In this document: one piece after another, positions 4,314-64,000 of the stretch
Position numbering within the stretch: position 1 is the stretch's first letter
Layout of the letters: the number at the start of each line of letters is the position of its first letter
DNA from: Fimbriimonadaceae bacterium
GTDB taxonomy: Bacteria > Armatimonadota > Fimbriimonadia > Fimbriimonadales > Fimbriimonadaceae
Assembly (NCBI GenBank): GCA_963666135.2
Contig: CAXXNR010000001.1
Location: forward strand, 1,513,853 to 1,577,852
Reading direction: 5' to 3'
DNA length: 64,000 bases
Program-made: the position numbers and the translations under genes
Notes under the pieces: generated by a model
Seen by the model: the letters and a program-made list of their open reading frames with translations, nothing else
What the model was told of the DNA's origin: nothing
Database searches by the model: none

Positions 4314-4395
4314 GCCATGATAGGCGCTTTTGCATCAAGGCTGGCTGGTAGCCCCGTCGGCGAAAAGGGTAAAACCGCCTTGTCGTCTGAAATCC

Positions 4396-44945: not shown

Positions 44946-45103
44946 GCGCTCCAACCTGGCTCCGATCTCGCATCATGGTCATTTGTCATTCGTAATTCGT
45001 CATTCCTTACCTCTTACGTCCTACATCCAAAATTCTCGCCCTCCAACCTGGCTCCGATCTCGCACCATGGTCATTTGTCATTCGTAATTTGTCATTCCTT
45101 ACC
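44946..45103. repeat. two direct copies of a roughly 66-bp unit (period 92 bp)
   Basis: CGC(G/C)CTCCAACCTGGCTCCGATCTCGCA(T/C)CATGGTCATTTGTCATTCGTAATT(C/T)GTCATTCCTTACC occurs at 44946-45011 and 45038-45103. Related GTCATTCGT / ACGTCATACGTC low-complexity tracts lie at about 14960-15000, 17575-17690 and 19436-19470. Confidence 0.75.
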
Positions 45104-50151: not shown

Positions 50152-50153
50152 AG

Positions 50154-52088
50154 CTAGTGTCGGAGGCACCTTCCGAGGGCTTCCACGGCCCAGATCATCG
50201 GGTACAGCTTTTCGGAATACCAGAGTTTAGCGAAATATAACCCTATCGGCTGGGCGTCGTTCAGGCCGTCCCGCTCAATGCACGGAATGAGATACGCAAG
50301 TCCGCTCTCGATCGCTTCTTCAATTTCCCTTTTCGGTTTGAAATATGAGAGGGCAGAAAGGGATAAAGAGGTTTCTTGGAGCATCGAGGGACTCCCGATA
50401 GCGGCTCCCCATCCGCCGTCTACGTTTTGCGCTTTAAGGAGGTAATTGATGCCTTTGTCGGTTGTTTCGTTCCTTTGGATGCTTTCGCCGTAGGCCATCA
50501 GGACGCGGGCTGTGCCGAAAGCGGGATTCTCGTTGTCGCGGGTGAGTTGGCTGCCGAACCACAGGGGCACCCATGAACCGTCGGCTCGCTGGGTCTTGGC
50601 GAGGTAGTCGTAGCCTCGGGCTTTCGCCGTTTCGGCTTTGGAAAAGAGTTCTTTGAGCCCTCTCCCCGACCCTCCCCCATGTGATGGGGGAGGGAGCATT
50701 TCCGATTCTTGCCTGGAACCCCCATCTGTGTTCGCTTCGCTCACACTTCTTCCCCCTGCAAGCAAGGGGAAGATGAGTTTGTTCTTGTCTTCTAGCGACT
50801 GGATCGCCCGTATCGCGTGGGCCGTGATGTCGGCGCAGCTTTGGTCGAAGGGCAGGCGTCCCCAGCCGCGGCAGAACGGAGGCCAGCCGCCGTCTCTGTT
50901 CTGAAGGTTGAGGAGCCAGGTGATACCTTTCTCAATTTGGCCGGTTGGGATGGTCGGACTTGTTAGGCTTCCAGAAAGAACTAGCTGCGCTGCCGAGGTG
51001 TCGTCGCCGTCGGGAACCGAGCCGCTGAGGTCGGTCCACCCCCAGCCGCCGGGAGCTGCGTGAGTGAACGGATGGACGGTCGTTGTTTGGTTCGCCAAGG
51101 TCCACTCGATGGCAGATCGCGGCGGCTCGACTCTGGCTGTTCGCAGTGCGTTGATCGCGCACGACGTCACCCATTGAGCCAGATTCGTGTCAATCGGCCA
51201 CGAACCGTCTTCTCGTTGCTGGCTCCTGAGGAAGATAAGGGCTTTTGCTAGAACGCGGTCAATGGGGGTGCTTTGCCCCCTCCCTAACCCTCCCCCGCCG
51301 AGCGGGAGAGGGGATTTCTCCCTCCCCCATCCTATGGGGGAGGGCTGGGGAGAGGGTTCGTCTTTCCCATCTGAAGTAGGAAGATCGTTGCGAATCGTCA
51401 GCAACGACATCGAGACAAACGCCGTCAGCGGGGTCGCTTCGAGGAAGCCGCCGGACTCAGGCATGATCTGCTGGAGGATGCGAAGCGCTTTCTTTTCCGT
51501 CAACTTCCCAAGAACGGTTTGTCCTCGTTGCTTGTCGATGGCCAATCCGACAGCGATCAACGCAGGCATGGCGTAGCTGACGACTTGGAGCTTTAGCAAG
51601 TTGAACAACTGATAAGGCATCGCGGCCAACGGATAAGGAAGCCTCGGCACGGAAGACCAGCTCACGATGCCCGCAATGGCGCATGTCGTGAGGATCGGCA
51701 CCGAGAACGTGTGGTCCTCGCCGTAGATCTCGTGGATTCCTGCGGCTATATCGTCACCGAGAATGCTTTTAAGGTAGGCGAGCGCCCTTGCATCTTCGAC
51801 ACGACCAGTGATTTTCAACGCAGACAAGACTAAAAGCGTCGTGGATGGATTGCTTAGCGACTTCGGACAGTCACCCCAGCCGCCGTCGGATTTCTGGGTT
51901 TGAATTAGCCACGCCAATCCTCTTTCGATCTTGGGCGAATCTGAAGCATCGCCGTTTAGGTGCAAGGCGATAATCGCCACTGCTCCAGCTAAAGCAGAGG
52001 ACGACAGCTCGCCGACCCAATGGCCATCAGGTGTCAGCTCAGCCATAAGAGCTTCAACGGCAATGTGCAAGGCCTGCTCCGGCGTCAC
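50154..52088 (-). CDS. shc: squalene-hopene cyclase family class II terpene cyclase
   Basis: GGWGWTDLSGSVPDGDDTSAAQLVL carries the DxDDTA-type catalytic motif. Multiple QW-type repeats are present (SDGGWGDC, EDGSWPID, RDGGWPPF, ADGSWVPLWFG, VDGGWGAA), plus DITAHAIRA (compare SHC DVTAHVL). I prefer GTG 52088, which overlaps the upstream stop (GTGA). The upstream 93 codons of the track ORF overlap the radical SAM gene. Confidence 0.8.
   Translation of the reverse strand: MTPEQALHIAVEALMAELTPDGHWVGELSSSALAGAVAIIALHLNGDASDSPKIERGLAWLIQTQKSDGGWGDCPKSLSNPSTTLLVLSALKITGRVEDARALAYLKSILGDDIAAGIHEIYGEDHTFSVPILTTCAIAGIVSWSSVPRLPYPLAAMPYQLFNLLKLQVVSYAMPALIAVGLAIDKQRGQTVLGKLTEKKALRILQQIMPESGGFLEATPLTAFVSMSLLTIRNDLPTSDGKDEPSPQPSPIGWGREKSPLPLGGGGLGRGQSTPIDRVLAKALIFLRSQQREDGSWPIDTNLAQWVTSCAINALRTARVEPPRSAIEWTLANQTTTVHPFTHAAPGGWGWTDLSGSVPDGDDTSAAQLVLSGSLTSPTIPTGQIEKGITWLLNLQNRDGGWPPFCRGWGRLPFDQSCADITAHAIRAIQSLEDKNKLIFPLLAGGRSVSEANTDGGSRQESEMLPPPSHGGGSGRGLKELFSKAETAKARGYDYLAKTQRADGSWVPLWFGSQLTRDNENPAFGTARVLMAYGESIQRNETTDKGINYLLKAQNVDGGWGAAIGSPSMLQETSLSLSALSYFKPKREIEEAIESGLAYLIPCIERDGLNDAQPIGLYFAKLWYSEKLYPMIWAVEALGRCLRH
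50658..50694. repeat. palindromic G/C-homopolymer element inside the cyclase CDS (copy A)
   Basis: CCCTCTCCCCGA-CCCTCCCCCAT-gtg-ATGGGGGAGGG has an 11-bp stem. It is translated in frame as ...LPPPSHGGGSGRG... Confidence 0.75.
51275..51356. repeat. palindromic G/C-homopolymer elements inside the cyclase CDS (copy B, inverted relative to A, plus a second hairpin)
   Basis: CCCTCCCCCAT-cct-ATGGGGGAGGG-CTGGGGAGAGGG together with CCCTCCCCCGCCGAGCGGGAGAGGGG. It is translated in frame as PSPQPSPIGWGREKSPLPLGGGGLGRGQ. Confidence 0.75.
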
Positions 52089-53638
52089 GCTTTCGCCTTC
52101 CTTTGCTTCAGTCGAAACGCCGCGTTCCACCACACAACTTGGCTTTTGCCGATGACCTGAGCGGCCAAACTCCGCGCCGTCGGCACACCTGAACCTTGCT
52201 CGTTGTCCCAGACCAGCTTCGGTACCCACTTGAAGTTCAGTCGGTAAGATTCGATTACGGTTTGCCAGTGAGTTTTGGTCAGACTCGGCAATGGGTCGCT
52301 TTGACCAAGCGGGGCGAGGGCAACAGGAAACACAGACATTCGCTGATCGCTGAGTTCTTGAACCCATCTGAGGCTCTGCCGGGCTTCGTCAGGCGTTTCT
52401 GTTGGAAGCCCGAGGACGATGGAAACCAGGGGATAGAAGCCTGCGCGAATCAAGCGCCTCATCTGCTCCTGGGTGTGCGCGTGCCATTCCTCTGGCGGGC
52501 CTCCGGCCATCTTGGCGCGGCCGCCGTTCCTCGCCAGCAACGGACCGGAAGCCGTCTCAACGCCGATATTGACCCAGACGTACTCGTGCTGCTGGCCTAG
52601 AGTAAGCAATCGGCGGACTTCCAACAGCTCTTGGTCGCTGAACTGGGCGATGGAGCTGACGTTCACGTGGTCGATCTGCATCAGCTTAACAGCTTTGTTT
52701 TCTCTGAGTTTGGTTAGCGTCTTGATGAGCGTTTCTGGTTTGACTTTCGCTCCTGATGAGCCGTAGCGGAAGAAGTCCTCGCTGAGCAAGGAAAGGCTGG
52801 TTTGGCCGCCTTCGAGGTTCTTTACAATATCGCTCTCGATGGTTTCGATCGGCAAGTGGCACATCGGGGTATGGGCGATGGTGCAGAACTCGCAACCCCA
52901 TCCGCAGCCGCGGCTCATCTCGACGGCGCCCATCGTGGCAGCTGCATTGATGGCTGGGATGTCGACTGGTTGCTCGCCCTTGACGGTTCCTAAGCCTTGG
53001 CAGGTCTCAATAATCTGATTGATGATGGAAGCAATGTTGCCTTCGCAGTACCCGTCGACGACGGTGAGTTGGGCGTTCTTTTGCAAGCGTTGCAGAATCC
53101 CCAAGGTTTTTGCCGGCAAGGTGCCGGCGCTCCCAGCTATCTCATTTGGACGTACCGGGTTATCTATCTCTTGCGCGATCTGCCACGCTCCCGGTCCGCC
53201 GATGACGACTTGGGCGTTAGGAGCTTTCTTGAAAGCAGACAACAGAACCTGTTCGAAAAACACCTGAGGCCAGATGCGGCCGCCCGCGATGGCAACCATC
53301 GTCGATGAGTTCATGCCCTTGCCCAGCGGTTCGCCGGTAGCGATGCCGATGATCTTCGTTTCCGGCCCAATCGCATCTACAAGGCGGTCCGGATGGCAGA
53401 CACACACCTCATGTCCAGCGTGGACGAGTGCCGATTCAATGCGCCGCAAACCCAAAGGCGCGACTTTGGCAGGCAACGGATTGGGTCTTGGAACCGGCAT
53501 CAATAGGTTTTCGAGAATGAACCTTGGCGTCGATGTCGTCTGGCTGGCGGCAACCATGGCGTCGAACAAGCAGGCGTAGTCGGCCATCAGCAGACGGTCT
53601 GCCGTGAGAACGATTTGGTGGCCGCCTTTAGTCGCCAT
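52085..53638 (-). CDS. radical SAM enzyme with N-terminal B12-binding-like (Rossmann) domain
   Basis: EMSRGCGWGCEFCTIAH is a CxxxCxxC radical SAM motif about 240 aa after an N-terminal alpha/beta domain (KIIGIATGEPLG...). 517 aa. Confidence 0.75.
   Translation of the reverse strand: MATKGGHQIVLTADRLLMADYACLFDAMVAASQTTSTPRFILENLLMPVPRPNPLPAKVAPLGLRRIESALVHAGHEVCVCHPDRLVDAIGPETKIIGIATGEPLGKGMNSSTMVAIAGGRIWPQVFFEQVLLSAFKKAPNAQVVIGGPGAWQIAQEIDNPVRPNEIAGSAGTLPAKTLGILQRLQKNAQLTVVDGYCEGNIASIINQIIETCQGLGTVKGEQPVDIPAINAAATMGAVEMSRGCGWGCEFCTIAHTPMCHLPIETIESDIVKNLEGGQTSLSLLSEDFFRYGSSGAKVKPETLIKTLTKLRENKAVKLMQIDHVNVSSIAQFSDQELLEVRRLLTLGQQHEYVWVNIGVETASGPLLARNGGRAKMAGGPPEEWHAHTQEQMRRLIRAGFYPLVSIVLGLPTETPDEARQSLRWVQELSDQRMSVFPVALAPLGQSDPLPSLTKTHWQTVIESYRLNFKWVPKLVWDNEQGSGVPTARSLAAQVIGKSQVVWWNAAFRLKQRKAKA
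53111..53159. repeat. 49-nt hairpin element inside the radical SAM CDS
   Basis: TGCCGGCAAGGTGCCGGCGCTCCCAGCTATCTCATTTGGACGTACCGGG contains a GCCGGCA-agg-TGCCGGC stem. It is translated as VRPNEIAGSAGTLPA. Confidence 0.8.
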
Positions 53639-53647
53639 TGAGGTTCA

Positions 53648-54466
53648 TTATGGCTGAGCGTCGAGCAGGTCGATCAGGGCGTCGATGTCGTCCTTTATCG
53701 GCGATACGGGCGGCGTGTAGGGTCCTCCGCACTCTGGGCAAGTGTCGCCTGATTTCGGAGCAGGTCCAAGCGGAACCATTTTACAGACGGGACAGGCTTG
53801 TTTGGTGCGCAGATAGAACATCCGCTTGGCGTTCGCATCGGGCGACATGTAGAGTCCAGGAGAGCCGCTGATGGCTTGATCCTGAACGTACATTGGGAAT
53901 ATGATTGCGCCTTGGGGGCATATGCGCGAACACGCCGGGCAGCCGGTTTTGCATGAGTCTGGGTTCGTGATGACGACGTGCTGGGCTTCGTCGCGCGTAT
54001 AAACGCCGAAAAGGCAGAACTGCAAGCACTGGCCGCAGTCGTCGCATCGGTCTTTATCGACAACGGGGTGCCAGCGGGGTGCAGGGGCTAAGTCAGATAA
54101 AACGATAGCTCCAGTCTCTGCCGGCAAGGTGCCGGCGCTCCCAGCTATCTCACTTGGATGTACCGGGATCTCCCGCAACAACGCCTCAAAACAACCCTCG
54201 GTAGACTCAAAAGCATCGTATCGAAAACAGGCCGCACTCAATCCGTGGCGGTGCAAAATCCATTGCGTAGGACGCGGATGAAGGTCGGACCAAACCGCCG
54301 AGATCGAACCCAATGAGGCCAGTTGATTCCATAAAGAGCTAGACTCAGGAATGTCGTAAAGCGATGGTGCCAAAACGACCCGAAAACCGGCAAAAAGCAA
54401 ACGATCGGCAAGTTCGCGAACTCGATCTTCGTCTATTGAACGGCATAAAACAACGGTGGCACTCAT
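53648..54466 (-). CDS. 2x[4Fe-4S] ferredoxin-domain protein with N-terminal alpha/beta domain and C-terminal zinc-ribbon
   Basis: CDDCGQCLQFC and CKTGCPACSRICP cluster motifs, then CPVC...CPEC. It is the first gene of the operon, ending 9 nt before the radical SAM gene. Confidence 0.7.
   Translation of the reverse strand: MSATVVLCRSIDEDRVRELADRLLFAGFRVVLAPSLYDIPESSSLWNQLASLGSISAVWSDLHPRPTQWILHRHGLSAACFRYDAFESTEGCFEALLREIPVHPSEIAGSAGTLPAETGAIVLSDLAPAPRWHPVVDKDRCDDCGQCLQFCLFGVYTRDEAQHVVITNPDSCKTGCPACSRICPQGAIIFPMYVQDQAISGSPGLYMSPDANAKRMFYLRTKQACPVCKMVPLGPAPKSGDTCPECGGPYTPPVSPIKDDIDALIDLLDAQP
54119..54167. repeat. 49-nt hairpin element inside the ferredoxin-like CDS (47/49 identical to 53111-53159)
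   Basis: TGCCGGCAAGGTGCCGGCGCTCCCAGCTATCTCACTTGGATGTACCGGG is translated as VHPSEIAGSAGTLPA. A diverged intergenic relative sits at about 37686-37715. Confidence 0.8.
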
Positions 54467-54565: not shown

Positions 54566-55972
54566 ATGAAGCAGTTCCTCATCGAAAAAGGCGTCCCATC
54601 GGTTGTCGCTCTGATAGCGATAGGCGCAATGGCAGCTTGGTTTAAGAGCTATAGCCAAGACCTCGGCATCAAAGACCGGCCGCTTGGCATCGAGCTCTCA
54701 GAGAGGAAGCAGGCCGAACCGGAACCGACGCAGACCAACCAAGCCGCGCCTCAAGCCTCCCAAGTAACCGCAAATCCGGCTGCGACCATTGAAGATCTGC
54801 CCGGAGAATGGACACAGTTTCGTGGACCGAACGCCGATAACGTCAGTCCCGAAACGACTCCCTTAACCAGCCTATTCCCAGCACAAGGTCCGCCTTTGCT
54901 GTGGGCTGCCGACATGGGCGAAGGATATGCCGCGGCTGCGGTCCATAAGGGCCGCGTGTTCGTCCTCGACTACGACACTCCCACTCGTTCGGATGTATTG
55001 AGATGCCTCTCGCTGGCGAACGGTCAAGAGGTTTGGCGGCGTAGCTATCCAGTAGTGGTGAAGCGCAACCATGGTATGTCACGAACTGTTCCAGCCGTGA
55101 ACGATAAATACGTCGTCACGCTTGGACCGAAGTGCCACCTCATGGTTTGCGATCCAGTCACGGGCAAAGAGTTTTGGCGCAAAGACCTGGTCGCTGAGTT
55201 CGGAGTCGAAGTGCCCCAATGGTATGCAGGCGAGTGCCCGATCATCGACGGCAACAACGTCATCGTCGGCACGGGCGGCAAAGCGCTAATGGTGGCGTTC
55301 GACCTCGCCACAGGCAAGCCGGCCTGGAAAACTCCGAATCCTAAAGGCTGGAAGATGACGCACAGCACCATCGTCAAAACGACCTTCCAAGGCAAGCCGA
55401 TTTACATATGGTGCGCCAATGAAGGCGTTGTCGGCGTTTCGGCCGAGGACGGCAAGCTGTTGTGGGAGACCGAGGAGTGGAAGGTCAGTACGGCGACGGT
55501 ACCGACTCCAATACCGATTGGCGATGGTCGACTCTTTATTTGTGGCGGCTACGATTCTGGCGCGGCGATGTTTCAGATAACGGCTGCCGGACTCAAGCTT
55601 CTTTATCGAGTGGCGTCGAAGGAGTTCGGCAGCGACCAGCAGACGCCGGTGCTTTACAAGAATTACATCTATGGCGTGACGCCCGACAAGAGCCTAACGT
55701 GCCTTACCCTCGACGGTAAAGTTGCATGGAAAAGCGGATCGACAACGAACTTCGGCCTCGGACCGTATCTCATCGCCGACGGCAAGATTTTTGTGCTCGA
55801 CGATAAAGGCACGCTCACAATCGCCGAGGTGTCTCCCAAAGGGTACAAGCCTCTGGCTCAAGCTAAGGTCCTTCAAGGGCCGGACGCGTGGGGGCCGATG
55901 GCGCTTGTTGGCGGGCGCTTAATCTGCAGAGACTTGAAAAGGATGGTTTGCTTGGATGTTTCGAAGAAATAG
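54566..55972 (+). CDS. membrane-anchored PQQ-like (BamB-type) beta-propeller protein
   Basis: N-terminal TM helix (VPSVVALIAIGAMAAW), a low-complexity linker, WTQFRGPNADNVS, then repeated G..(L/V)W(R/K) blade motifs. Confidence 0.75.
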   Translation: MKQFLIEKGVPSVVALIAIGAMAAWFKSYSQDLGIKDRPLGIELSERKQAEPEPTQTNQAAPQASQVTANPAATIEDLPGEWTQFRGPNADNVSPETTPLTSLFPAQGPPLLWAADMGEGYAAAAVHKGRVFVLDYDTPTRSDVLRCLSLANGQEVWRRSYPVVVKRNHGMSRTVPAVNDKYVVTLGPKCHLMVCDPVTGKEFWRKDLVAEFGVEVPQWYAGECPIIDGNNVIVGTGGKALMVAFDLATGKPAWKTPNPKGWKMTHSTIVKTTFQGKPIYIWCANEGVVGVSAEDGKLLWETEEWKVSTATVPTPIPIGDGRLFICGGYDSGAAMFQITAAGLKLLYRVASKEFGSDQQTPVLYKNYIYGVTPDKSLTCLTLDGKVAWKSGSTTNFGLGPYLIADGKIFVLDDKGTLTIAEVSPKGYKPLAQAKVLQGPDAWGPMALVGGRLICRDLKRMVCLDVSKK

Positions 55973-56867
55973 CCTGATCTTAATCGGAATATTGGTCCTG
56001 GCCGGTTGTTCGCCAAAAGGCGGCAACGGCAACGTCTCAAAAGTCGATCCCAACTCTCCCGAGCCGACATACGGCAAAGAGCTACAGTTCGACGTTCCGC
56101 TTGAGAAGCCAACGGGACTGGCTAAGACGGACAACGCGATCTATGTCGTTGGCGATCGGCAATTGCTTAAGTTTGACTTGAAAGGCAAACTCGCAGAAAC
56201 GATTGACGCGCCCGATGAGCCTACATGCGTTACCGTGAGTCCGAATGGCAGAGTGTTTCTTGCCGGACTCAATAGGGTCTACGAGCTCATTGACGGACAG
56301 GTTCAACCTCTTCTGGTTCTTTCATCAGGAAAGGCGCATATCACCTCTATATCATCGTCGCCTACCTATTTGTGGATAGCGGACGCTGGCTCAAGGAGGG
56401 TTATGAGAGCCGAGCTGAGAACGCTGGCTCTAACTGAGTACGGCCAGAAGACCAAAGACTATCCGGGCTTGATCGTTCCCAGCCCGCACCTTGATGTGGC
56501 CGTACTCGGCAATGAAGACGTCATCTGGACCAACCCCGGCGCGCACCGGTTTGAACAGCATGACAAAGATGGAAAGCTTCTGAAGGCCTGGGGTAAGGCG
56601 TCCCAGGATCTAGACGGTTTCTGCGGATGCTGCAATCCGACCGACGTGGCTCGGTTCATGGACAACACGATCATCACATCGGAGAAAGGTCTGCCGCGCA
56701 TCAAAACCTATTGGCGAGGCAAGTTCGACAACGTGGTAGCGCCAGCTAGCGCTCGATCTGAGAAGGCTGCCGGCATCGACTTAGCTGCCGACAGCACGCG
56801 CATTTATGCCCTAGATCCGTTCGCCAAGAATGTCACCGTCTACATTCATAAGGATAAGCTCAAATGA
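55956..56867 (+). CDS. NHL/six-bladed-propeller-like lipoprotein with CGCC motif
   Basis: LILIGILVLAGC is a lipobox. Repeated beta-strand blades are visible (IYVVGD, RVFLAG, LWIADAG, VIWTNPG). It carries a DGFCGCCNPTDVA Cys cluster and overlaps the previous gene by 17 nt. Confidence 0.55.
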   Translation: MFRRNSLILIGILVLAGCSPKGGNGNVSKVDPNSPEPTYGKELQFDVPLEKPTGLAKTDNAIYVVGDRQLLKFDLKGKLAETIDAPDEPTCVTVSPNGRVFLAGLNRVYELIDGQVQPLLVLSSGKAHITSISSSPTYLWIADAGSRRVMRAELRTLALTEYGQKTKDYPGLIVPSPHLDVAVLGNEDVIWTNPGAHRFEQHDKDGKLLKAWGKASQDLDGFCGCCNPTDVARFMDNTIITSEKGLPRIKTYWRGKFDNVVAPASARSEKAAGIDLAADSTRIYALDPFAKNVTVYIHKDKLK

Positions 56868-57076
56868 AGGAAAGCAAGCAGACATCGCGGCGCGAATTCC
56901 TCTTGGGCCTTGTCCGATGGGGTGCGATTGCTGGAGCCGCAGGAGTTGCCGTAAAGCTAACCGCTAAAGACGGCGAGACCTGCACGAACCTAGGCATTTG
57001 CAGCTCGTGCGGACGGTTTGATGGATGCGGATTGCCGCAAGCACTTTCAGCCAAAGCAACGCAACGTGAATCATGA
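56864..57076 (+). CDS. 70-aa Tat-signal mini-protein with Cys-rich mature part
   Basis: SRREFLLGLVRWGAIAGAAGVAV is a twin-arginine leader. The mature part is about 35 aa with CTNLGICSSCGRFDGC (Cx5Cx2Cx5C). ATGA overlaps occur at both ends. Confidence 0.6.
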   Translation: MKESKQTSRREFLLGLVRWGAIAGAAGVAVKLTAKDGETCTNLGICSSCGRFDGCGLPQALSAKATQRES

Positions 57077-57636
57077 GCGAACAAGGCGAGAAGAGAACGA
57101 GGCGAGAAGTCCTGAGAGAAGGGATACGGCTGGGCGGCCTGATCACAGTCAGCGCAACGCTCGGTTCATTCGCGTCAAGATCTTCCGCCGAAGGAACCGT
57201 TTGGCAGATCGACCCGTATCTCTGCGTCCAATGTGAAAAGTGCGGCACGGAATGCGTTCTCGAGCCTTCCGCGGTCAAGTGCGTGCATGCTTATGCAATG
57301 TGCGGCTACTGCCAGCTTTGCTTCGGACTTTACCGCGATCAGAGAACAGGGAACGAGATTGCCGCCGAAAACAACCGCTGTCCGACCGACGCCATTAAGC
57401 GCAACTTTATTGAGGATCCGTATTACGAGATGTCGATCGACGAGTCGCTGTGCGTCGGCTGTTCCCGGTGCGTCAAAGGATGCAACCAGTTCGGCAATGG
57501 GTCGATGCACTTGCAGATTCGGCACGACCGTTGCGTCAACTGCAACCAGTGCGCCATCGCCCAGCATTGCCCAGCAGGGGCTATCAAGCGCGTGCCTGCC
57601 TCTCAGCCGTACTTGTTCAAGACGGTGAAGAAATGA
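57073..57636 (+). CDS. Tat-exported polyferredoxin (NapG/MauM/DmsB-like, four Cys motifs)
   Basis: TRREVLREGIRLGGLITV is the leader. Four Cys motifs follow: CVQCEKCGTEC, CGYCQLC...CP, CVGCSRCVKGC and CVNCNQCAIAQHCP. Confidence 0.75.
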   Translation: MSEQGEKRTRREVLREGIRLGGLITVSATLGSFASRSSAEGTVWQIDPYLCVQCEKCGTECVLEPSAVKCVHAYAMCGYCQLCFGLYRDQRTGNEIAAENNRCPTDAIKRNFIEDPYYEMSIDESLCVGCSRCVKGCNQFGNGSMHLQIRHDRCVNCNQCAIAQHCPAGAIKRVPASQPYLFKTVKK

Positions 57637-57764
57637 GGGGCTTGCGATTGCCCTCTCTCTTGAGAAGTGGGAAGGAACCAGGTATCGCTGGCAACTTAAG
57701 AACGAGCCAATGTGATTTGAACGCGGAACTGCAGCCTCTGGATGTATCGCATCATATGAGTGCT

Positions 57765-57862
57765 GTCATTCCGAGCGCGGCGAGGAAACTGAGTGGACTC
57801 ATGGCCAGTAGCTGCTATCAGGAAGCGCCCGCACTCAGATCCCTCGCCGCGCTCGGGATGAC
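57765..57862. repeat. roughly 100-nt hairpin repeat in the only sizeable gap of the operon
   Basis: The arms GTCATTCCGAGCGCGGCGAGGAA (57765-57787) and TCCCTCGCCGCGCTCGGGATGAC (57840-57862) are complementary at 21 of 23 positions. The stem is extended by CTGAGTG/CACTCAG. A related arm, GTCATCCTGAGCGTTAGCGAAGGACC, is at 17407-17432. Confidence 0.75.
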
Positions 57863-59282
57863 ACGGAGTGAAGCTAGACAACTCCCCAGCAACGACTTTC
57901 CGGCAACCTCTCTAGCTGGACAGGCAAACGCGGCTACAGGTCGACGACAGAATGGTCAGGGAGTGGGGAAGCTAGTAGCGGCTGCCGCCCTGCTCGCATT
58001 AACACCCCTTACCTACGCCCAAGAACAGTCCCGCCAAGATCCGCCCGACTTCACTTCGGGTTATGCGCTGCCGTCGCCGACAGCACCCGGGCCGCGCGCT
58101 GACCTATTCGGATACATCGACGTCGCTGTTCTCATGCTTGTCATGGCTCTTTGTGCTTTCTTCCTTTTGCGCAAACGGTCGAGGCGAGAAATCCAGGTCC
58201 TATCGATCTTCTCGCTCCTCTATTTTGGATTCTATCGTCTTGGCTGCGTGTGCTCGGTCGGCTCGGTACAGAATATCGCTTTGGCTCTAGGCGACAATAA
58301 ATACGCCGTGCCGTTTACCGTCATGGCGTTTTTCCTGCTCCCATTGGTCTTTACGCTGTTCTTTGGACGGGTGTTTTGCGGATCTGCCTGCCCGCTCGGG
58401 GCGATGCAGGATCTTGTGGCGTTCAAACCGCGAAAAGTGCATCCGGGCCTGGATCGCGGGCTCGGAATCTTGCCTTATGTCTGGCTGGCGATCGGCGTGT
58501 TCTTCGCCTACGAAGGCGCGGCGTTCTTCATTTGCGAATACGATCCCTTTGTCGGTTTCTTTCGGCTGAGTATGCGCTCCGGCGTGTTTTGGGTAAGCAT
58601 CGTCTTTCTGGTTCTGAGCGTCTTTGTCGGCCGACCCTATTGCCGGTTCCTTTGCCCCTATGGCGGTTTGCTTAGGCTGATCAATCCGCTGGCTAAGTGG
58701 AAGGTCAGCATCACGCCAAACGAGTGCATCAATTGCCACCTATGCGCTGAAGCGTGTCCGTTTGGATCGATCCAGCCCCCGACTTCGGCTTCGGAGGACC
58801 TAAATCGACCGAAAGCTCGTAAGCATCTCGCATGGGCGGTTCTTTCGGTGCCGATCCTTGCCGTTTTGTTCGCTGGAATTGCCTATTGGGCTGCTCCGGC
58901 TTTGGCTAGTCAACATCTGACTGTTGCCAAGGCGAAGGTCGTTTGGGAAGAAGGCAAACAACCATCAGAAAAGACGCCAGACAAGCTGCGCGCGTGGCGT
59001 AATACGGGTAGACCCGAAGGCGAACTTTACTTCGAAGCCTTAAAGGTGAAAAATAAATTCCAGGAGGATGCGCCGTACCTTGGAGGCTTTATTGGATTGA
59101 TAATCGGGCTGAGCCTTGTATCAGCAGCTAGAATAAGGAAGCGTACGCAGTATCTCGCGGACGAAGGCTGCGTATCGTGCGGCCGATGCTATTCGTCTTG
59201 TCCTGTGGAGCAAGCAAGAGTAAACCCCGATCTAGCCCCGAGGCTTGAGCAGTTGAAGAAGGAGTTAAGAGTCTTACCGTGA
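57858..59282 (+). CDS. NapH/MauN/NosR-type integral-membrane polyferredoxin
   Basis: GRVFCGSACPLGAMQD and GRPYCRFLCPYGG are CxxxCP membrane-proximal motifs. CINCHLCAEACP and CVSCGRCYSSCP are [4Fe-4S] motifs, and there are at least 6 TM helices. The start is uncertain: ATG 57858 gives a possible leader (...GRRQNGQGVGKLVAAAALLALTPLTYA). The 5' part of the track ORF (57450-) overlaps the previous gene. Confidence 0.7.
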   Translation: MTRSEARQLPSNDFPATSLAGQANAATGRRQNGQGVGKLVAAAALLALTPLTYAQEQSRQDPPDFTSGYALPSPTAPGPRADLFGYIDVAVLMLVMALCAFFLLRKRSRREIQVLSIFSLLYFGFYRLGCVCSVGSVQNIALALGDNKYAVPFTVMAFFLLPLVFTLFFGRVFCGSACPLGAMQDLVAFKPRKVHPGLDRGLGILPYVWLAIGVFFAYEGAAFFICEYDPFVGFFRLSMRSGVFWVSIVFLVLSVFVGRPYCRFLCPYGGLLRLINPLAKWKVSITPNECINCHLCAEACPFGSIQPPTSASEDLNRPKARKHLAWAVLSVPILAVLFAGIAYWAAPALASQHLTVAKAKVVWEEGKQPSEKTPDKLRAWRNTGRPEGELYFEALKVKNKFQEDAPYLGGFIGLIIGLSLVSAARIRKRTQYLADEGCVSCGRCYSSCPVEQARVNPDLAPRLEQLKKELRVLP

Positions 59283-61225
59283 GCAGCGCCAACCAACAGA
59301 TAAACGGTTCCAAAAGCTGGGAAAGAGCCATGGCGGCAGCGAGCTGGGTCGCCATCGTCTTCTGCGCTGTCGTAGCGATCGCTATAGCCGTAACCACATT
59401 CAACGCGCGCAAGTACGATCCGCTGGCCACCACTCTCCTTGAGAACAAGCTGCTCGCCCTCAATCGCGACCCCAAGAACGAGACCCTTCGGCTTGAAGCC
59501 CGTAAACTGGACCTGCAGATAAGGCAAACTTACTTCCAGCGCCAAGCCTTTGCAGTCAACGGCTTCTACTTGATACTCGCCGGAGCAGCCGTATTCTTCT
59601 TGGCCAACGAGGCAAGAAAGGCGATTCGTCGTTCCGTGCCCTTGCCTAAACCTTCTTCATCCGAGTTTGAAGAAAGAACGAGCGCAGGCGCAAGGCGATC
59701 GGTCGCTGTTCTTGGAGTGTTGCTTGGTGGGGGATTGATCACCTTAGCGGCCGTCTCAAGACACGACTCGGCAGCCGAGTATGCAAAGGAAGCCATTAAA
59801 CCGGCTAAGAAAGTCGCGGCTTCCGCTTCGACTGAAGGAACACAGCCCGACGGCCAAGGCGGAACGGCGCTTCAGCCGCTGGCTCTTCCGGGCATTTCCG
59901 GTCCAATTGGTAGCGGTCTACCCTCTGGAGGAGGAACGCTGAACTCCGGATCGACCGGCGGCGGAACGAACCTGGAGCCGGTCAAGGGCGGCGGAGGCGG
60001 CGCAACTACAAAGGCGGCCCAGCCGTCTGCCCAGCCCATCGAAGCGTACGTTCAAGATTCGCTGAAGAACGATTGGCCGTCGTTTCGCGGTCCCGGCGGC
60101 ATCGGCGTTGCCTTGAACGCTAAGCCGATGACCGATTGGTCGCCGACCAGCAACATACTCTGGAAAGCCAAGATCGACCTGCCGGGTTGGAACTCACCGA
60201 TCGTGGTTGGCGGCAAAGTGTTCCTAGCCGGTGCGGATAAGTCAAAGCGCACGGTCTATTGCTTCAACTCGATCAACGGCGATGAGGTTTGGCGAAAGGA
60301 CGTGCCTTCCACCACCAAGGATGCCCCGCAGGTTCTGGACGACACAGGATATGCGCCTTCGACCATGGCCTCGGACGGCCAGCGCGTGTTCGCTATCTTT
60401 CCAAACGGCGATGTCTACGGGTTCGACCTAGAAGGCAAGCAGCTCTGGCAGAAAGCGCTTGGCATGCCGTCTAATGTTTATGGCCATGCGACATCGCTTG
60501 TTGTATACGGCAGCGGACTTCTCATCCAGTTCGACCAAGGCACGGCTCCCGAAGACGGCAAGTCGAAGCTGATCGCCCTAGAATGCGCGACGGGCAAGGT
60601 GGCATGGGAAGTGAAGCGGCCGGTAGCGGGCTCGTGGTCCACGCCGCTGGTAATCAAGGTCGGCGGCAAAGAGCAGATCATTACGACTTCGAATCCGCTG
60701 GCCATCGCTTATGATGCAGCTTCAGGCAACGAGCTTTGGCGCGTCGAGTGCCTAAGCGGCGACGTCGCCCCTTCGCCTGCATTCGGCTCTGGCTTTGTAC
60801 ATGTTGCCAACTTGGGTTCATACATGTCGGCGCTAAGGCCCGACCTCAAGGGCGACATCGCCAAGACAGGCATCGGCTGGCAATCGCAAGATGACTTGCC
60901 CGACATAACGAGCCTTCTTTGCCATCATGACCTGCTTTACCTTCTGACGACTGAGGGCGTTCTTACATGCGTGGACGCTAAAACCGGCAAGAAGGTCTGG
61001 AACCACAACTATAACGAGCGTTTCAACGCCTCGCCGATCTTCGCCGACGGCAAAGTTTACTTGATGGAGATCAGCGGCAAAGCGCACATTTTGGAGGCTG
61101 GCCGCGCTTACAAAGAAATCGGATCGCCTTCGATTGGTGAGGAGGTTCGCGCGACTCCAGCATTCGTCAGCGACCGAGTCTACATCCGCGGCAAGCAGCA
61201 TTTGTTCTGCATCGGAGGTCTATGA
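59279..61225 (+). CDS. PQQ-like beta-propeller protein with three N-terminal TM helices and Gly-rich linker
   Basis: The GTG start overlaps the upstream stop (GTGA). TM segments are followed by WPSFRGPGGIGVA and repeated G.(E/K)(V/L)W(R/K/Q) blades. It is a paralog of 54566-55972. Confidence 0.75.
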   Translation: MSSANQQINGSKSWERAMAAASWVAIVFCAVVAIAIAVTTFNARKYDPLATTLLENKLLALNRDPKNETLRLEARKLDLQIRQTYFQRQAFAVNGFYLILAGAAVFFLANEARKAIRRSVPLPKPSSSEFEERTSAGARRSVAVLGVLLGGGLITLAAVSRHDSAAEYAKEAIKPAKKVAASASTEGTQPDGQGGTALQPLALPGISGPIGSGLPSGGGTLNSGSTGGGTNLEPVKGGGGGATTKAAQPSAQPIEAYVQDSLKNDWPSFRGPGGIGVALNAKPMTDWSPTSNILWKAKIDLPGWNSPIVVGGKVFLAGADKSKRTVYCFNSINGDEVWRKDVPSTTKDAPQVLDDTGYAPSTMASDGQRVFAIFPNGDVYGFDLEGKQLWQKALGMPSNVYGHATSLVVYGSGLLIQFDQGTAPEDGKSKLIALECATGKVAWEVKRPVAGSWSTPLVIKVGGKEQIITTSNPLAIAYDAASGNELWRVECLSGDVAPSPAFGSGFVHVANLGSYMSALRPDLKGDIAKTGIGWQSQDDLPDITSLLCHHDLLYLLTTEGVLTCVDAKTGKKVWNHNYNERFNASPIFADGKVYLMEISGKAHILEAGRAYKEIGSPSIGEEVRATPAFVSDRVYIRGKQHLFCIGGL

Positions 61226-63597
61226 AGCCTAGGATCGAAACGGCGCACGAAGATTCGATTTCCTATGTCGACCAGCTCGTCCAGCAGCTTGGCCGCGGGG
61301 AAGAGAACGCCATTCCGATCTTGCAGGCCATCCAAAAGCGCTACCGTTTCCTTCCCGAAGAAGCGCTTCGCCGCGTCGCCGAATCGACTCATATAACGCC
61401 CGCTACAATCCAGGGCATCGCATCGTTCTATTCGATGTTTCGGCTCAGGCCGGTCGGCAAGCACATCGTCAGCGTCTGCCACGGCACCGCCTGCCACGTC
61501 AAAGGATCGGTGTTGATTGAAGATTCGATCCGCCGCCATCTGAAGCTTAACGGCACAGAAGACACCGATAAGGACGGCACCTTTACCCTCGCTAAAGTCG
61601 CTTGTCTGGGTTGTTGCACGCTCGCGCCGGTGGTTCAAATCGACGGCGTGACTTACGGCCATCTGACTCCAGAAACCGCACAAAAGGCGTTGAACGACTT
61701 CCTTCGTTTAGAAAAGAAGGGCTTGGTTGCCGATTCCTTTGATGTTGGCCGCGAACACAAAAACGGCTTAACCGAGGTTCGAATAGGCGTTGGCTCGTGC
61801 TGCGTCGCAGGCGGAAGCATGAAGGTCGGAGAAGCGCTGATCGATGCTTTGAAATCGACTGGAGCCAAAGCGGTCGTCAAGCCAGTCGGCTGCGTGGGCA
61901 TGTGCCACCAGACGCCGTTAGTCGAGATTGCCAAGAACGGCAGCCGAACCGGACTCTATGCCAAGGTGAAGCCGGGAGACGCCGAAGCGATCATCCGCAA
62001 GCACTTTAGACCGCGCGGCATCGCCGGCTTGCTGAAGTCGGCGTGGACCGGCTCGCTAGATCGGATGTTGGAAGTCGACGTTGATGAAGATCCGCTGACA
62101 CGATATGCCATCGATGCTCGCGATCCCCAAGTGTGCGCGTTCCTCGGTCCACAAAAGCACATCGCAACGGAGTTTTGCGGGGCGATTGACCCGCTTGATC
62201 TGGATGAATATCTCTCGCATGACGGCTTCGACGGCTTGACTAAGGTGCTTGAAGACAACAATCCTCAGGCCATCATCGACGAAGTGAAGACTGCCGGTCT
62301 GCGCGGACGAGGCGGCGCGGGATTTCCAACAGGACGCAAGTGGGACCTGACGCGCAACGCCAAGTCGTCCAAGAAATATGTGGTTGTAAACGGCGACGAG
62401 GGCGATCCGGGCGCATTTATGGACAGGATGCTACTCGAGTCCTATCCCTACCGAGTGCTCGAAGGTTTAGCGATCGCAGCGTTCGCTGTCGGTGCAGACG
62501 AGGGCATTCTCTATATCCGATCCGAGTATCCACTTGCGGTCCAGCGCATCCAAGAGGCGATCAAGCGTTGCGAGGAGCGCGGCCTGCTGGGTTCGAACAT
62601 CCTCGGCAAAGGTTTCAATCTGACGTTGCGCATCATGGAAGGCGCAGGTGCATTCGTTTGCGGCGAGGAGACCGCCATGCTCGCCTCCATCGAAGGCAAA
62701 CGCGGAACGCCGACGCTTCGTCCGCCATATCCTGCAGAGAAGGGCCTTTGGGGCAAGCCGACGAACATCAACAATGTGGAGACCTATGCGTTGGTGCCTT
62801 GGATCGTGCGGCACGGCGGCCAGACCTTTGCCGAACTGGGCACCGAAACGAGCAAGGGAACGAAGGTTTTTGCCCTGACCGGCAAAGTCAAGCGCGGCGG
62901 CTTGGTCGAAGTGCCGATGGGCATCTCCATACGCGACATCGTCGAAAAGATCGGCGGCGGGGTCCTGGATGGACGTAAGTTCAAAGCGGCGCAGATCGGC
63001 GGACCTTCGGGAGGGTGCGTGCCTGAAGCATTAGCCGACACTCCCGTTGACTACGAAGCGCTGGCCAAAGTCGGCACGATGATGGGCTCAGGCGGACTGG
63101 TTGTGTTGGACGACAAGACCTGTATGGTCGACATCGCGAGGTACTTCCTCGAGTTCACCCAGAAGGAATCGTGCGGCAAGTGCACTTTCTGCCGGGTCGG
63201 AACGCGGCGCTTACTCGACATCCTCGAGGATTTCTGCTCAGGCAAGGCCAAGAAGGGCGACATCGAGAAGCTGGAGGAACTGAGCGCTCAAGTGAAGCAA
63301 GGCAGCATCTGCGGCCTTGGTCAGACAGCGCCGAATCCGGTTCTCACCACAATTCGCTACTTCCGAGATGAATATGTGGCGCACCTAGAAGGCCGCTGTC
63401 CGGCTGGAGTTTGCAAAGACCTGATCCATTACACGATCAACGACGCCTGCATCGGATGCACGAAATGCGCGCAGGCCTGCCCTGTCGGTGCGATCGAAAT
63501 GAAGCCGTTCGAGAAGCATATCGTTGACGACGCGCTTTGCACGCGATGCGATTCGTGCGTTAAGGTTTGCCCTGAGAATGCCGTGGAGGTGCGCTAG
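61222..63597 (+). CDS. fused NuoE-like [2Fe-2S] + second thioredoxin-like [2Fe-2S] + NuoF-like FMN/NADH/[4Fe-4S] + C-terminal 2x[4Fe-4S] ferredoxin (HydC-HydB/Bfu-type flavoprotein)
   Basis: VCHGTACHVKG...CLGCCTLAP is NuoE-like. SCCVAGG...GCVGMCH is the second [2Fe-2S]. GRGGAGFPTGRKW and VVNGDEGDPGAF are the NuoF FMN/NAD site. ESCGKCTFCR is the N3 cluster. CIGCTKCAQACP and CTRCDSCVKVCP are the C-terminal ferredoxin motifs. ATGA overlaps the upstream gene. Confidence 0.85.
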   Translation: MKPRIETAHEDSISYVDQLVQQLGRGEENAIPILQAIQKRYRFLPEEALRRVAESTHITPATIQGIASFYSMFRLRPVGKHIVSVCHGTACHVKGSVLIEDSIRRHLKLNGTEDTDKDGTFTLAKVACLGCCTLAPVVQIDGVTYGHLTPETAQKALNDFLRLEKKGLVADSFDVGREHKNGLTEVRIGVGSCCVAGGSMKVGEALIDALKSTGAKAVVKPVGCVGMCHQTPLVEIAKNGSRTGLYAKVKPGDAEAIIRKHFRPRGIAGLLKSAWTGSLDRMLEVDVDEDPLTRYAIDARDPQVCAFLGPQKHIATEFCGAIDPLDLDEYLSHDGFDGLTKVLEDNNPQAIIDEVKTAGLRGRGGAGFPTGRKWDLTRNAKSSKKYVVVNGDEGDPGAFMDRMLLESYPYRVLEGLAIAAFAVGADEGILYIRSEYPLAVQRIQEAIKRCEERGLLGSNILGKGFNLTLRIMEGAGAFVCGEETAMLASIEGKRGTPTLRPPYPAEKGLWGKPTNINNVETYALVPWIVRHGGQTFAELGTETSKGTKVFALTGKVKRGGLVEVPMGISIRDIVEKIGGGVLDGRKFKAAQIGGPSGGCVPEALADTPVDYEALAKVGTMMGSGGLVVLDDKTCMVDIARYFLEFTQKESCGKCTFCRVGTRRLLDILEDFCSGKAKKGDIEKLEELSAQVKQGSICGLGQTAPNPVLTTIRYFRDEYVAHLEGRCPAGVCKDLIHYTINDACIGCTKCAQACPVGAIEMKPFEKHIVDDALCTRCDSCVKVCPENAVEVR

Positions 63598-64000
63598 ATG
63601 GTTCATGCGGTGACGGGAGCTTTCGGCTATAGCGGCCGCTACATAACTCAAAAGCTTCTCGGGAAAGGCGAGGACGTTCTCACGCTAACCAACGCCCCGA
63701 AGGACCGCGATCCCTTCGGCGGCAAGGTCAGAGCGTTTCCTTTGCGGTTCGATAGCATCGACCTTCTTTCGCAATCCTTGGTTGGCGTCGACGTGCTTTA
63801 CAACACTTATTGGGTGCGCTTTAACCATAAGGATTTCACCCACCAAGAGGCTGTTCGCAACACGAAGGTGTTGTTCGATGCCGCTAAGGAGGCTGGCGTC
63901 CGGCGTGTGGTCCACGTCAGCATAACGAATCCCTCGCTCGATTCGCCCTACGAGTACTTCAAGGGTAAGGCCGAACTTGAAGAAGCGCTAATGAACTCAG
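63598..64000 (+). CDS. NAD(P)-binding SDR / NmrA- or NDUFA9-like protein, 3' end cut by the window edge
   Basis: ATG 63598 directly follows the upstream TAG. MVHAVTGAFGYSGRYITQKLL has a GxxGxxG Rossmann motif. The frame is open to the window end and so is absent from the ORF track. Confidence 0.7.
   Translation, partial: MVHAVTGAFGYSGRYITQKLLGKGEDVLTLTNAPKDRDPFGGKVRAFPLRFDSIDLLSQSLVGVDVLYNTYWVRFNHKDFTHQEAVRNTKVLFDAAKEAGVRRVVHVSITNPSLDSPYEYFKGKAELEEALMNS

Follow-up and report, generated by a model that had tools for sequence, protein, structure and literature searches.

A multi-phylum gene system that may link a Bfu-type flavoprotein to propeller proteins of the bacterial cell envelope

The window analysed in this study is a stretch of 64,000 nucleotides from a Fimbriimonadaceae bacterium of the phylum Armatimonadota (assembly GCA_963666135.2, contig CAXXNR010000001.1). 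From position 54,566 to its end, it holds an operon for two anchored β-propeller proteins (PQQ1 and PQQ2), an NHL-repeat lipoprotein, a Cys-rich mini-protein, a NapG-like ferredoxin, a NapH-like polyferredoxin, a NuoE-NuoF-ferredoxin fusion (NuoEF) and a short-chain dehydrogenase/reductase (SDR)-like protein. Together with a divergent five-gene terpenoid cassette, the operon is best explained as a conserved cell-envelope system that is shared by many phyla. The reading favoured here, to which a probability of roughly 45% is assigned, is that a flavoprotein of the Bfu type drives a heme-free conduit, which exports low-potential electrons to the propeller and NHL proteins. These would act on a substrate of the envelope, possibly a terpenoid. 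Taken as a whole, it is rated as an extracytoplasmic electron-transfer system of the NapH type whose donor and acceptors are new.

Relatives of the NapH-like protein were found in at least 572 genomes from more than ten phyla (one genome per species), and its subfamily comprises 366 clusters at 50% identity (E ≤ 1e-30). The 80 best loci from a scan of one genome per species were compared with the NapH-like gene as anchor; the source genome is not among them and the best match shares 52% identity. Nearly all of these loci have seven genes in the same order, namely those for PQQ1, NHL, mini-protein, NapG-like, NapH-like, PQQ2 and the NuoEF fusion. The recurrent arrangement starts with one to five copies of PQQ1, runs through these genes to a GltD-like gene and ends with an ABC-FtsX pair, in some cases preceded by a further propeller or a glycosyltransferase of family 4 (GT4). 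The loci belong to Armatimonadota, Planctomycetota, Verrucomicrobiota, Kiritimatiellales, Bacteroidota, Omnitrophota, Poribacteria, Aminicenantes, KSB1, Calditrichota and others, and some are from metagenome-assembled genomes labelled Bacillota. Cultured strains with the system are Rhodopirellula sp. SM50 and Novipirellula herctigrandis (Planctomycetota) as well as Ancylomarina sp. DW003 (Bacteroidota). No paper or protein family describing this gene combination was found in a search of the literature and of curated families.

The loci were annotated with the window proteins as queries, and each component was counted over those loci that were long enough to judge it. The NapG-like gene lies within 1 kb upstream of the NapH-like gene in 72 of 73 loci and the NHL gene within 2.5 kb upstream in 62 of 67. 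A propeller gene directly precedes the NHL gene in 50 of 59 loci. PQQ2 follows directly downstream of the NapH-like gene in at least 56 of 68 loci and NuoEF within 5 kb downstream in 51 of 59, while ABC or FtsX genes were seen in 17 of 20. The SDR gene was found in none of the 80 loci. Thus, the co-occurrence check proposed for the eight genes by the original prediction, which was made from the DNA letters alone, bears out seven of them by synteny and leaves out the SDR.

The SDR was consequently rejected as a component of the system. Its place is explained by a related metagenome contig (L085), which is 87% identical at the nucleotide level to positions 62770-63991 of the window and carries, in this order, the 3' end of NuoEF, the SDR (303 aa), a GltD-like protein (521 aa), an ABC ATPase, an FtsX permease (1036 aa) and a secreted PQQ_2 propeller. 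Given this order and the absence of the gene from the 80 loci, it is a lineage-specific insert between the NuoEF and GltD-like genes. An unrelated insert of this kind is the one argument for a chance assembly of eight unrelated genes. That explanation is practically negligible and was already refuted by the synteny: 80 loci from many phyla keep the order, neighbouring genes in the window have overlapping stop and start codons, and gene fusions occur. The operon predicted with eight genes exists as a chain, but the conserved unit is larger. It adds the GltD-like gene, a MacB-type ABC unit, a third propeller, the terpenoid cassette and, often, a GT4 gene. On the best reading, what is visible in the window is part of an operon of about twelve genes that continues past the window end.

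The cytoplasmic part of the system is homologous to bifurcating enzymes. Among PDB sequences, the best match of the NuoEF fusion was StnB from the StnABC complex of Sporomusa (8oh5_B, E 2.9e-220), followed by 9bov_B, NfnB (9n5u_B) and HydB. The matches to StnB, NfnB and HydB span residues 185-790 of the fusion, and NuoF of complex I ranked far behind (~1e-109). The Cys motifs are kept in 52 orthologues. Judged by architecture, the fusion belongs to the Bfu family with a core of the HydBC/StnAB type: a NuoE-like [2Fe-2S] part is joined to a NuoF-like part that has an N-terminal [2Fe-2S], an FMN/NAD site, a [4Fe-4S] and the C-terminal 2×[4Fe-4S] domain. It had been described as a NuoEF-type flavoprotein, and the NuoE, NuoF and 2×[4Fe-4S] domains are indeed present; Bfu/Stn-type is the more precise term. 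No protein of the operon passes a function-specific cut-off of the curated NCBIfam models, and the N-terminal domain of the fusion marginally reached the generic NuoE model NF005722 (141.2 vs 141 bits).

A partner subunit of the Stn/Nfn type is encoded as well. It lies outside the window on the same 1.93-Mb contig of the source genome (P0381), and a GltD-like partner is present in 46 of 56 related loci. The GltD-like subunit has about 520 aa and consists of a NuoG-type N-terminus and a GltD-like domain for flavin adenine dinucleotide (FAD) and NADPH. Its best matches in the PDB are the N-terminal ~310 residues of 9bov_A, StnC (8oh5_C) and NfnA (E 1e-105), and the large formate-dehydrogenase-like C-terminal half of StnC and NfnA is missing. 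In the Stn architecture, NADPH is oxidised at the GltD-like FAD, bifurcation takes place at the flavin mononucleotide (FMN) of the HydB-like subunit and ferredoxin is reduced at the C-terminal 2×[4Fe-4S] domain (PMC10482914). The module of NuoEF and GltD-like subunit may bifurcate electrons in the same manner. A survey of Bfu enzymes contains many uncharacterised clades and predicts membrane-bound members, none of them coupled to NapH or to propellers (PMC9304861).

The membrane and periplasmic iron-sulfur (Fe-S) proteins show the features of a NapG/NapH pair. Among 69 orthologues of the NapG-like protein, four CxxCxxC(xxxC) groups with 16-17 Cys are conserved together with the RR motif, and the curated NapG model PRK09476 gave no match at E ≤ 0.01. 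The NapH-like protein matches PF12801 twice (68.5 bits, cut-off 22) and has both the two CX3CP motifs and the two [4Fe-4S] motifs. Its scores of 60.8 bits for TIGR02163 and 47.7 bits for PRK09477 are far under the cut-offs of these curated NapH/MauN models (213 and 234, respectively). The pair named in the original prediction is therefore NapG/NapH-like at the level of the superfamily, but not a true NapGH. Two CX3CP motifs, two CX2CX2CX3CP motifs and the residues C130, C132 and C226 are invariant in the alignment of the NapH-like proteins. By the positive-inside rule, the CX3CP and ferredoxin motifs are predicted on the cytoplasmic side and the three single Cys at the periplasmic helix ends. 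A profile search of PDB sequences with the NapH-like family returned generic ferredoxin motifs only.

Two other kinds of carrier were considered and rejected. The periplasmic proteins are without a CXXCH heme motif and the sole CXXCH lies inside a ferredoxin motif, which speaks against c-type heme. Flavinylation by ApbE was dismissed since no FMN_bind match was obtained and neither FMN-binding nor ApbE families are among the conserved neighbours. The mini-protein is a third conserved member of the proposed conduit. Its layout (RR/RK-x-F, helix, C-X4-8-C-X2-C-X4-8-C) recurs upstream of the NapH-like gene in at least 57 of 76 loci. No Pfam or NCBIfam model matched it. Besides the twin-arginine motif and the helix, only the four Cys (C-X5-6-C-X2-C-X5-6-C) are kept, a pattern that would suit a small knot around an Fe-S cluster or a metal. 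The predicted topology, with NuoEF in the cytoplasm and the propellers anchored outside, agrees with the signals read from the sequences and with a hydropathy scan.

A parallel to mau and qhp clusters had also been suggested. In such a case, the radical SAM enzyme of the cassette would cross-link the small Cys-rich mini-protein, which would then be exported and assembled with a propeller into a quinone-type enzyme. On the surface, the ingredients are there (a propeller, a Cys-rich Tat (twin-arginine translocation) protein, a MauM/MauN-like pair, a radical SAM enzyme and an ABC exporter). However, the mini-protein keeps its four Cys only and has no conserved Trp for tryptophan tryptophylquinone (TTQ) or cysteine tryptophylquinone (CTQ). 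MauG-, QhpG- or QhpE-like genes are missing from the conserved set. The radical SAM enzyme has no match to curated maturase models such as the SPASM enzyme QhpD, gave weak matches only to B12-binding/radical SAM and MiaB-like models and is absent from most redox loci. The parallel was thus not sustained, and a maturation system of this kind is very improbable.

A known terminal enzyme is not part of the system either. No NapA, NapB, NapC or other known terminal reductase, no Mau or Qhp protein and no amine dehydrogenase, cytochrome or molybdoenzyme partner was found in the window and its neighbourhood, in the downstream region of L085 or among the conserved families of 160 related loci. This is what had been predicted for the window. 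The same prediction had named the discovery of such an enzyme just downstream as the finding that would turn the operon into a described system; since L085 continues with SDR, GltD-like protein, ABC, FtsX and propeller, there is none.

Three of the proteins on the outer side are propellers, and PQQ1 among them is remarkably well conserved. The AlphaFold2 model of PQQ1 (pLDDT, the predicted local distance difference test score, of 88.8) is an eight-bladed propeller, and a single N-terminal transmembrane (TM) helix is seen in its hydropathy profile. In Foldseek, it comes closest to BamB and tetrathionate hydrolase (E ~1e-18 to 1e-16). Members of the PQQ1 family share 50-60% identity across phyla and 56 invariant columns. 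Invariant polar residues include K166, H169, S172, R173, T174, Y220, N258, M264, H266, Y329, Q358, R455 and D456, while C190 and C224 are nearly invariant. By our own reading of the DSSP string, from which the loops were assigned, the polar residues lie in D-A and B-C loops and would form one face of the propeller. In Bacteroidota, three to five tandem copies of PQQ1 precede the NHL gene (L019, L041, L051, L053, L056, L071 and L080), and in the lineage of the window there is one. The NHL protein itself matched no Pfam model, but most of its 651 homologues match PF01436. In its AlphaFold2 model (pLDDT 89.5), six blades form an NHL propeller, which resembles TRIM and other NHL domains in fold. 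The residues G224-C225-C226-N227-P228 are invariant in the family and are located in a loop before an inner strand.

The second propeller is tied to the membrane protein. In other organisms, single polypeptides of 985-1136 aa combine an N-terminal NapH-like part with a C-terminal PQQ_2 propeller (P0393, P0395, P0399 and P0443, from several independent 50%-identity clusters). These fusions and the GTGA overlap of the two genes in the window argue for one membrane complex, of which PQQ2 is probably a subunit.

The original prediction spoke of PQQ-like propellers, and PF13360 propellers are indeed encoded by the first and the sixth gene. Dependence on pyrroloquinoline quinone (PQQ) was rejected. 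A PQQ dehydrogenase is recognised by the cut-off of TIGR03075 or TIGR03074 and has a propeller of ~570-600 aa with a PQQ/metal site, whereas PQQ1 and PQQ2 reached 23.9 and 51.8 bits against the TIGR03075 cut-off of 480, and their nearest folds are those given above. PF01011 yielded 18.9 bits for PQQ1 (cut-off 26.7) and 37 bits for PQQ2, and no single stretch passes alone in either protein. The BamB model TIGR03300 was likewise missed with 56.8 and 66.9 bits (cut-off 285), and both proteins have TM anchors in place of a lipobox. Fold searches with the NHL protein and PQQ1 gave generic propeller matches and no catalytic homologue, and the candidate sites of PQQ1, NHL and mini-protein match no known cofactor site.

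These propellers bear on the direction of the electron flow. The same machinery could work inward if the propeller and NHL proteins oxidised a low-potential substrate and the Bfu module reduced NAD(P)+ by confurcation. Electrons moving inward to about -320 mV oppose the membrane potential and need a periplasmic donor of very low potential. The propellers are not PQQ dehydrogenases, PQQ1 being nearest in fold to BamB and tetrathionate hydrolase, and the periplasmic proteins have no heme motif, which also argues against inward flow. On the other hand, Bfu/Stn enzymes are reversible (PMC10482914), and NapH-like proteins cluster with periplasmic oxidases such as the propeller oxidase ExaA in other systems (Meheust et al. 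2021, PMC8238504). On balance, inward flow is considered improbable.

The propellers may also be non-catalytic. They would then be scaffolds in envelope biogenesis or export, comparable to BamB, Lol or MacB. In this case, the main task of the Bfu module would be to feed reduced ferredoxin to the radical SAM and DUF116 proteins of the cassette, and the NapH/NapG-like proteins would serve as membrane anchor or sensor instead of exporting electrons. The best fold matches are indeed BamB and NHL scaffolds, and the ABC ATPase of the related loci is closest to LolD, FtsE and MacB. Radical SAM enzymes require low-potential electrons, and a dedicated ferredoxin gene precedes the radical SAM gene. However, a Tat-exported ferredoxin with four clusters, conserved as described, has no obvious purpose without periplasmic electron transfer. 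The high identity of PQQ1 across phyla together with its invariant polar face is atypical for a scaffold, and the redox core often occurs without a radical SAM gene nearby. A scaffold role is therefore hardly probable.

The suspected link of the operon to the divergent terpenoid genes was supported by their recurrent linkage in different gene orders. The divergent layout of cassette and redox operon recurs in L004, L006, L009, L020, L040 and L001, which is the closest of the relatives on long contigs. In co-directional order, the cassette follows the redox operon in L066 and L077 and precedes it in L070. Cassette, GT4 and ABC-FtsX-PQQ3 genes stand beside the redox genes in at least four arrangements. 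In one locus (L088), a single strand carries the order NapG-NapH-PQQ2-NuoEF-GltD-PQQ-ferredoxin-radical SAM-cyclase-DUF116/polyprenyl synthase-prenyltransferase-ABC-FtsX-PQQ3. A reciprocal test was made with the radical SAM gene as anchor in 80 metagenome loci, 71 of which have the cassette. Redox, propeller, ABC or GT4 genes were found in 41 of these 71, and in 31 they are directly adjacent or inside. The same GT4 family (E 1e-110 to 1e-190) stands beside ABC-FtsX in the loci anchored on NapH and beside the cassette in those anchored on radical SAM. The exporter is of MacB type in its domains (PF00005, PF12704 and PF02687) and was seen in relatives, not within the window.

The cassette proteins are themselves conserved. 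The motif D-x-D-D-T of the cyclase is present in 51 of 51 homologues, in agreement with a class II terpene cyclase. With 96 bits against a cut-off of 431 for the squalene-hopene cyclase (SHC) equivalog, it is not an orthologue of hopene cyclase. Its gene starts at GTG 52088, overlapping the stop codon of the radical SAM gene, and the longest open reading frame (ORF, to 52367) overstates it. The CX3CX2C motif of the radical SAM enzyme was found in 75 of 75 homologues. In related loci, the gene of the ferredoxin-domain protein Fd272 always precedes the radical SAM gene and the toroid gene comes after the one for the DUF116-polyprenyl diphosphate synthase fusion. DUF116 is a Cys-rich domain predicted to bind metal (PMC5898192).

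Some further genes were seen around the cassette and the exporter. The GT4 gene recurs at L081:18226-19524, L036:4225-5517 and in 25 or more other loci, where it stands immediately before the ABC-FtsX pair and also beside the terpenoid cassette; the one sequence that was read has an N-terminal CxxC. The window has no close copy of it; a distant GT4 is encoded at 4330-5541. In two Planctomycetota loci (L077:5951-7840 and L066:336-1448), genes for 1-deoxy-D-xylulose 5-phosphate synthase, which supplies isoprenoid precursors, and for a protein like uroporphyrinogen decarboxylase stand beside the system. A conserved ORF of ~150 aa is found directly upstream of the ferredoxin-domain gene in ten metagenome loci (L115, L122, L147, L149 and six more).

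With these components, the favoured reading can be put as a sequence of steps. The cytoplasmic Stn/Nfn-type flavoprotein, composed of the NuoEF fusion and the GltD-like NADPH subunit, would oxidise NAD(P)H and give off low-potential electrons at its C-terminal 2×[4Fe-4S] domain. They would pass to the cytoplasmic Fe-S motifs of the seven-helix NapH-like protein in its putative complex with PQQ2. The membrane would be crossed via Cys-ligated centres, without heme or covalent flavin, towards the Tat-exported four-cluster ferredoxin and the anchored mini-protein. The electrons could finally be used at the conserved face of PQQ1, at the NHL lipoprotein with its vicinal Cys or at both. The substrate would most likely be an envelope molecule, with a terpenoid (glyco)lipid from the cyclase, polyprenyl synthase and radical SAM cassette as the best candidate. 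Such a lipid may be glycosylated by the GT4 enzyme and moved by the MacB-type ABC unit with its own propeller. The same low-potential electrons could also feed the radical SAM enzyme via its dedicated ferredoxin. In favour of this reading, NapH-like proteins have already been viewed as modular units of electron transfer across the membrane (PMC8238504).

Several points weigh against this reading. About 14% of the adequately covered loci have no NuoEF gene nearby. The propeller and NHL proteins have no known redox cofactor site, and the folds closest to them, those of BamB and TRIM-NHL, are non-catalytic. A characterised orthologue exists for none of the proteins. To our knowledge, no route of electrons through a heme-free protein of the NapH type has been established, even for NapH. 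The gene content downstream of the window rests on L085 and P0381, not on the window's own continuation. About half of the cassette loci stand without a neighbouring redox, ABC or GT4 gene, and terpenoid genes lie within 10 kb in only 3 of 20 fully flanked loci anchored on NapH; in Bacteroidota, this flank is mostly taken by the arrays of PQQ1 paralogues. The link to the terpenoid genes is thus frequent, but not obligatory.

The last point is also the starting point for another explanation, by which the system is a periplasmic reductase or repair system that acts on a soluble or protein substrate, for example disulfides, polysulfide or sulfur compounds, or oxidised envelope components. Its function would not depend on the terpenoid cassette, which would be a mere frequent neighbour. 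The invariant vicinal Cys of the NHL protein and the invariant Cys of PQQ1 would suit this role. PQQ1 is weakly similar to tetrathionate hydrolase, and GltD-like proteins include relatives of sulfide dehydrogenase and NfnB. Yet in many loci, a shared GT4 family and the ABC-FtsX-propeller unit connect the redox genes with the cassette, single-strand super-operons such as L088 exist and the conserved set is without thioredoxin-fold or DsbD-like genes. A function of this type is regarded as unlikely.

Export of low-potential electrons to the propeller and NHL proteins is hence preferred. A bolder form of it, which is tentative and less likely than not but has a substantial chance, sees an unrecognised envelope machine of the PVC (Planctomycetota, Verrucomicrobiota, Chlamydiota) and FCB (Fibrobacterota, Chlorobiota, Bacteroidota) groups, Armatimonadota and others. 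In it, a flavin-based bifurcating module for NAD(P)H would have a fixed connection to an Fe-S conduit free of heme and flavin, through which electrons of very low potential would reach the periplasm. Propellers with no cofactor or a novel one (PQQ1 and the NHL protein with its vicinal-Cys site) would there reduce a cyclic terpenoid glycolipid. The cassette would build this lipid and the MacB-type ABC unit would move it.

If the favoured reading is true, this would be the first Bfu-type, potentially bifurcating flavoprotein that is coupled directly to a trans-membrane Fe-S conduit, and low-potential chemistry at the level of ferredoxin would extend to the periplasm. It would also give a role to thousands of hypothetical proteins annotated as BamB-like, PQQ-like or NHL repeat, which are among the best-conserved unknown genes of Planctomycetota, Verrucomicrobiota, Bacteroidota, Armatimonadota and several candidate phyla. 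The recurrent cyclase/radical SAM cassette, the glycosyltransferase and the MacB-type exporter would point to an unknown envelope terpenoid pathway. As the system occurs in cultured Rhodopirellula, Novipirellula and Ancylomarina, the question is directly testable.

The features of the window are listed in Table 1.

Table 1. Genes of the redox operon, hairpin element and genes of the divergent cassette; positions count from the first nucleotide of the window.
Feature	Position	Strand	Characteristics
PQQ1	54566..55972	+	eight-bladed PQQ_2/BamB-like propeller, N-terminal TM anchor; PF13360 94 bits
NHL lipoprotein	55956..56867	+	six-bladed propeller, lipobox LAGC, invariant GCCNP
Mini-protein, 70 aa	56864..57076	+	SRREFL twin-arginine motif, one hydrophobic helix, C-X5-C-X2-C-X5-C
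NapG-like ferredoxin, 187 aa	57073..57636	+	TRREVL Tat leader, Cys motifs for four [4Fe-4S] clusters; Fer4 families
REP-like (repetitive extragenic palindromic) hairpin	57764-57863	none	32-nt arms, 36-nt loop, between NapG-like and NapH-like genes
NapH-like polyferredoxin	57858..59282	+	seven TM helices; PF12801 twice and two Fer4 motifs
PQQ2	59279..61225	+	three TM helices, Gly/Ser-rich linker, PQQ_2 propeller; PF13360 99 bits
NuoE-NuoF-ferredoxin fusion, 791 aa	61222..63597	+	PF01257, PF01512, PF10589, C-terminal 2×[4Fe-4S]; core of bifurcating type (Bfu B/C) by domain content
SDR / NAD(P)-binding epimerase-like	63598..64000, cut by window end	+	PF01370 and PF13460 N-terminus
Fd272 ferredoxin-domain protein	53648..54466	-	first cassette gene; Fer4 dicluster matches
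Radical SAM enzyme	52085..53638	-	weakly like B12-binding/radical SAM family TIGR04013
Class II terpene cyclase-like (SHC-like)	50154..52088	-	PF13243 and PF13249; two in-frame REP-like insertions
DUF116-polyprenyl diphosphate synthase fusion	48511..50169	-	PF01976 and PF00348
Prenyltransferase/terpene-cyclase-type alpha-alpha toroid protein	47624..48514	-	last cassette gene; PF00432 E 2.9e-13

The chain of ORFs and its junctions were exactly as first described, and the domain calls of the original prediction agree with the Pfam results. From PQQ1 to SDR, the junctions are a 17-nt overlap, ATGA, ATGA, a gap of ~221 nt, GTGA, ATGA and TAGATG, so that overlapping stop and start codons couple the genes translationally. 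The hairpin repeat reported for the gap was recovered as an inverted repeat with arms at 57764-57795 and 57832-57863, which are 91% complementary. It is a long hairpin with a folding z of -3.1, and the two arms are the only matches of the motif in the window (0 expected by chance). In L001, the element is absent and the NapG-like and NapH-like genes overlap; hence, it is a REP-like insertion. A role as terminator was rejected, as the hairpin lacks a T-tract and the operon has no more terminator-like sites than expected by chance. Scans of the window with Rfam and for tRNA gave no matches. The start of the NapH-like gene is ambiguous. It is either ATG 57858, inside the 3' arm of the hairpin, or GTG 57963, the position at which the L001 orthologue starts in the alignment.

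Other repeats lie in the cassette and elsewhere in the window. The cyclase gene has two in-frame insertions of ~41 and ~33 aa, which its orthologues in L001 and L004 lack. A pair of 49-nt inverted repeats, whose arms are palindromic (CCCTCCCCCAT..ATGGGGGAGGG), lies at the same places (50655-50703 and 51311-51359), and the insertions look like REP-like elements within coding sequence. A direct repeat of 59 nt (53106-53164 and 54114-54172, 90% identical) is located inside the radical SAM and ferredoxin-domain genes on the minus strand. In both genes, the repeat codes for EIAGSAGTLPA within a variable linker, in which the orthologues differ, and it looks like a small mobile insertion that is tolerated in frame. 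An intergenic family has 72-nt copies at 44940-45011 and 45032-45103 (94% identical, 92 nt apart) upstream of a gene similar to glycoside hydrolase family 53, and a partial third copy at 17621-17653.

The system shares single parts with several known ones. Like NapGH, NosGH and MauMN, it has a Tat-exported ferredoxin with four [4Fe-4S] motifs beside a multi-helix PF12801 protein with two CX3CP and two ferredoxin motifs and no heme. It differs from them in the seven TM helices of the NapH-like protein, whose ferredoxin motifs are separated by two additional helices and a periplasmic loop, in the lack of a nap, nos or mau catalytic gene, in its predicted donor, which would be the cytoplasmic Bfu flavoprotein and not quinol, and in the propeller that is the partner of the NapH-like protein and elsewhere sometimes fused to it. 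In the Nos system (NosZ, NosR, NosL, NosDFY), too, a periplasmic propeller enzyme goes together with a membrane Fe-S protein of the NapH family, a lipoprotein in an accessory role and an ABC machine that works in the periplasm. However, NosZ, NosD and NosL are unrelated in sequence to the present proteins, the ABC unit here is of MacB type and not ABC-2, and PQQ1 has only two invariant His and thus no CuZ-type site with its seven His.

In mau and qhp clusters, one neighbourhood likewise contains a propeller subunit and a small exported protein rich in Cys, along with an ABC exporter and either a MauM/N-like pair or a radical SAM enzyme; besides the missing cross-link motif and MauG and QhpG, QhpA and its hemes are absent here and the propellers are of other families. 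The ApbE-linked NapH-like systems (PMC8238504) resemble the present one in that a NapH-like protein serves as a module connecting electron pools of the cytosol or membrane with redox proteins outside the cytosol. In contrast to them, the carriers here are Fe-S proteins, without FMN-binding domain or ApbE in the conserved set, and the propellers are not of ExaA type. BamB and tetrathionate hydrolase are eight-bladed PQQ_2-type propellers without PQQ as well, but PQQ1 shares 14-20% identity with them, has a TM helix instead of a lipid anchor and is far more conserved than BamB. StnABC and NfnABC (PDB 8OH5, 9N5U, 9BOV) have the same set of a NuoE-like [2Fe-2S] protein, a HydB-type flavoprotein with N-terminal [2Fe-2S] and C-terminal 2×[4Fe-4S] and a GltD-like NADPH subunit. 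Here, the NuoE-like and NuoF-like parts are fused, and the module stands in one operon with membrane and periplasmic Fe-S proteins, which would take the place of a soluble ferredoxin.

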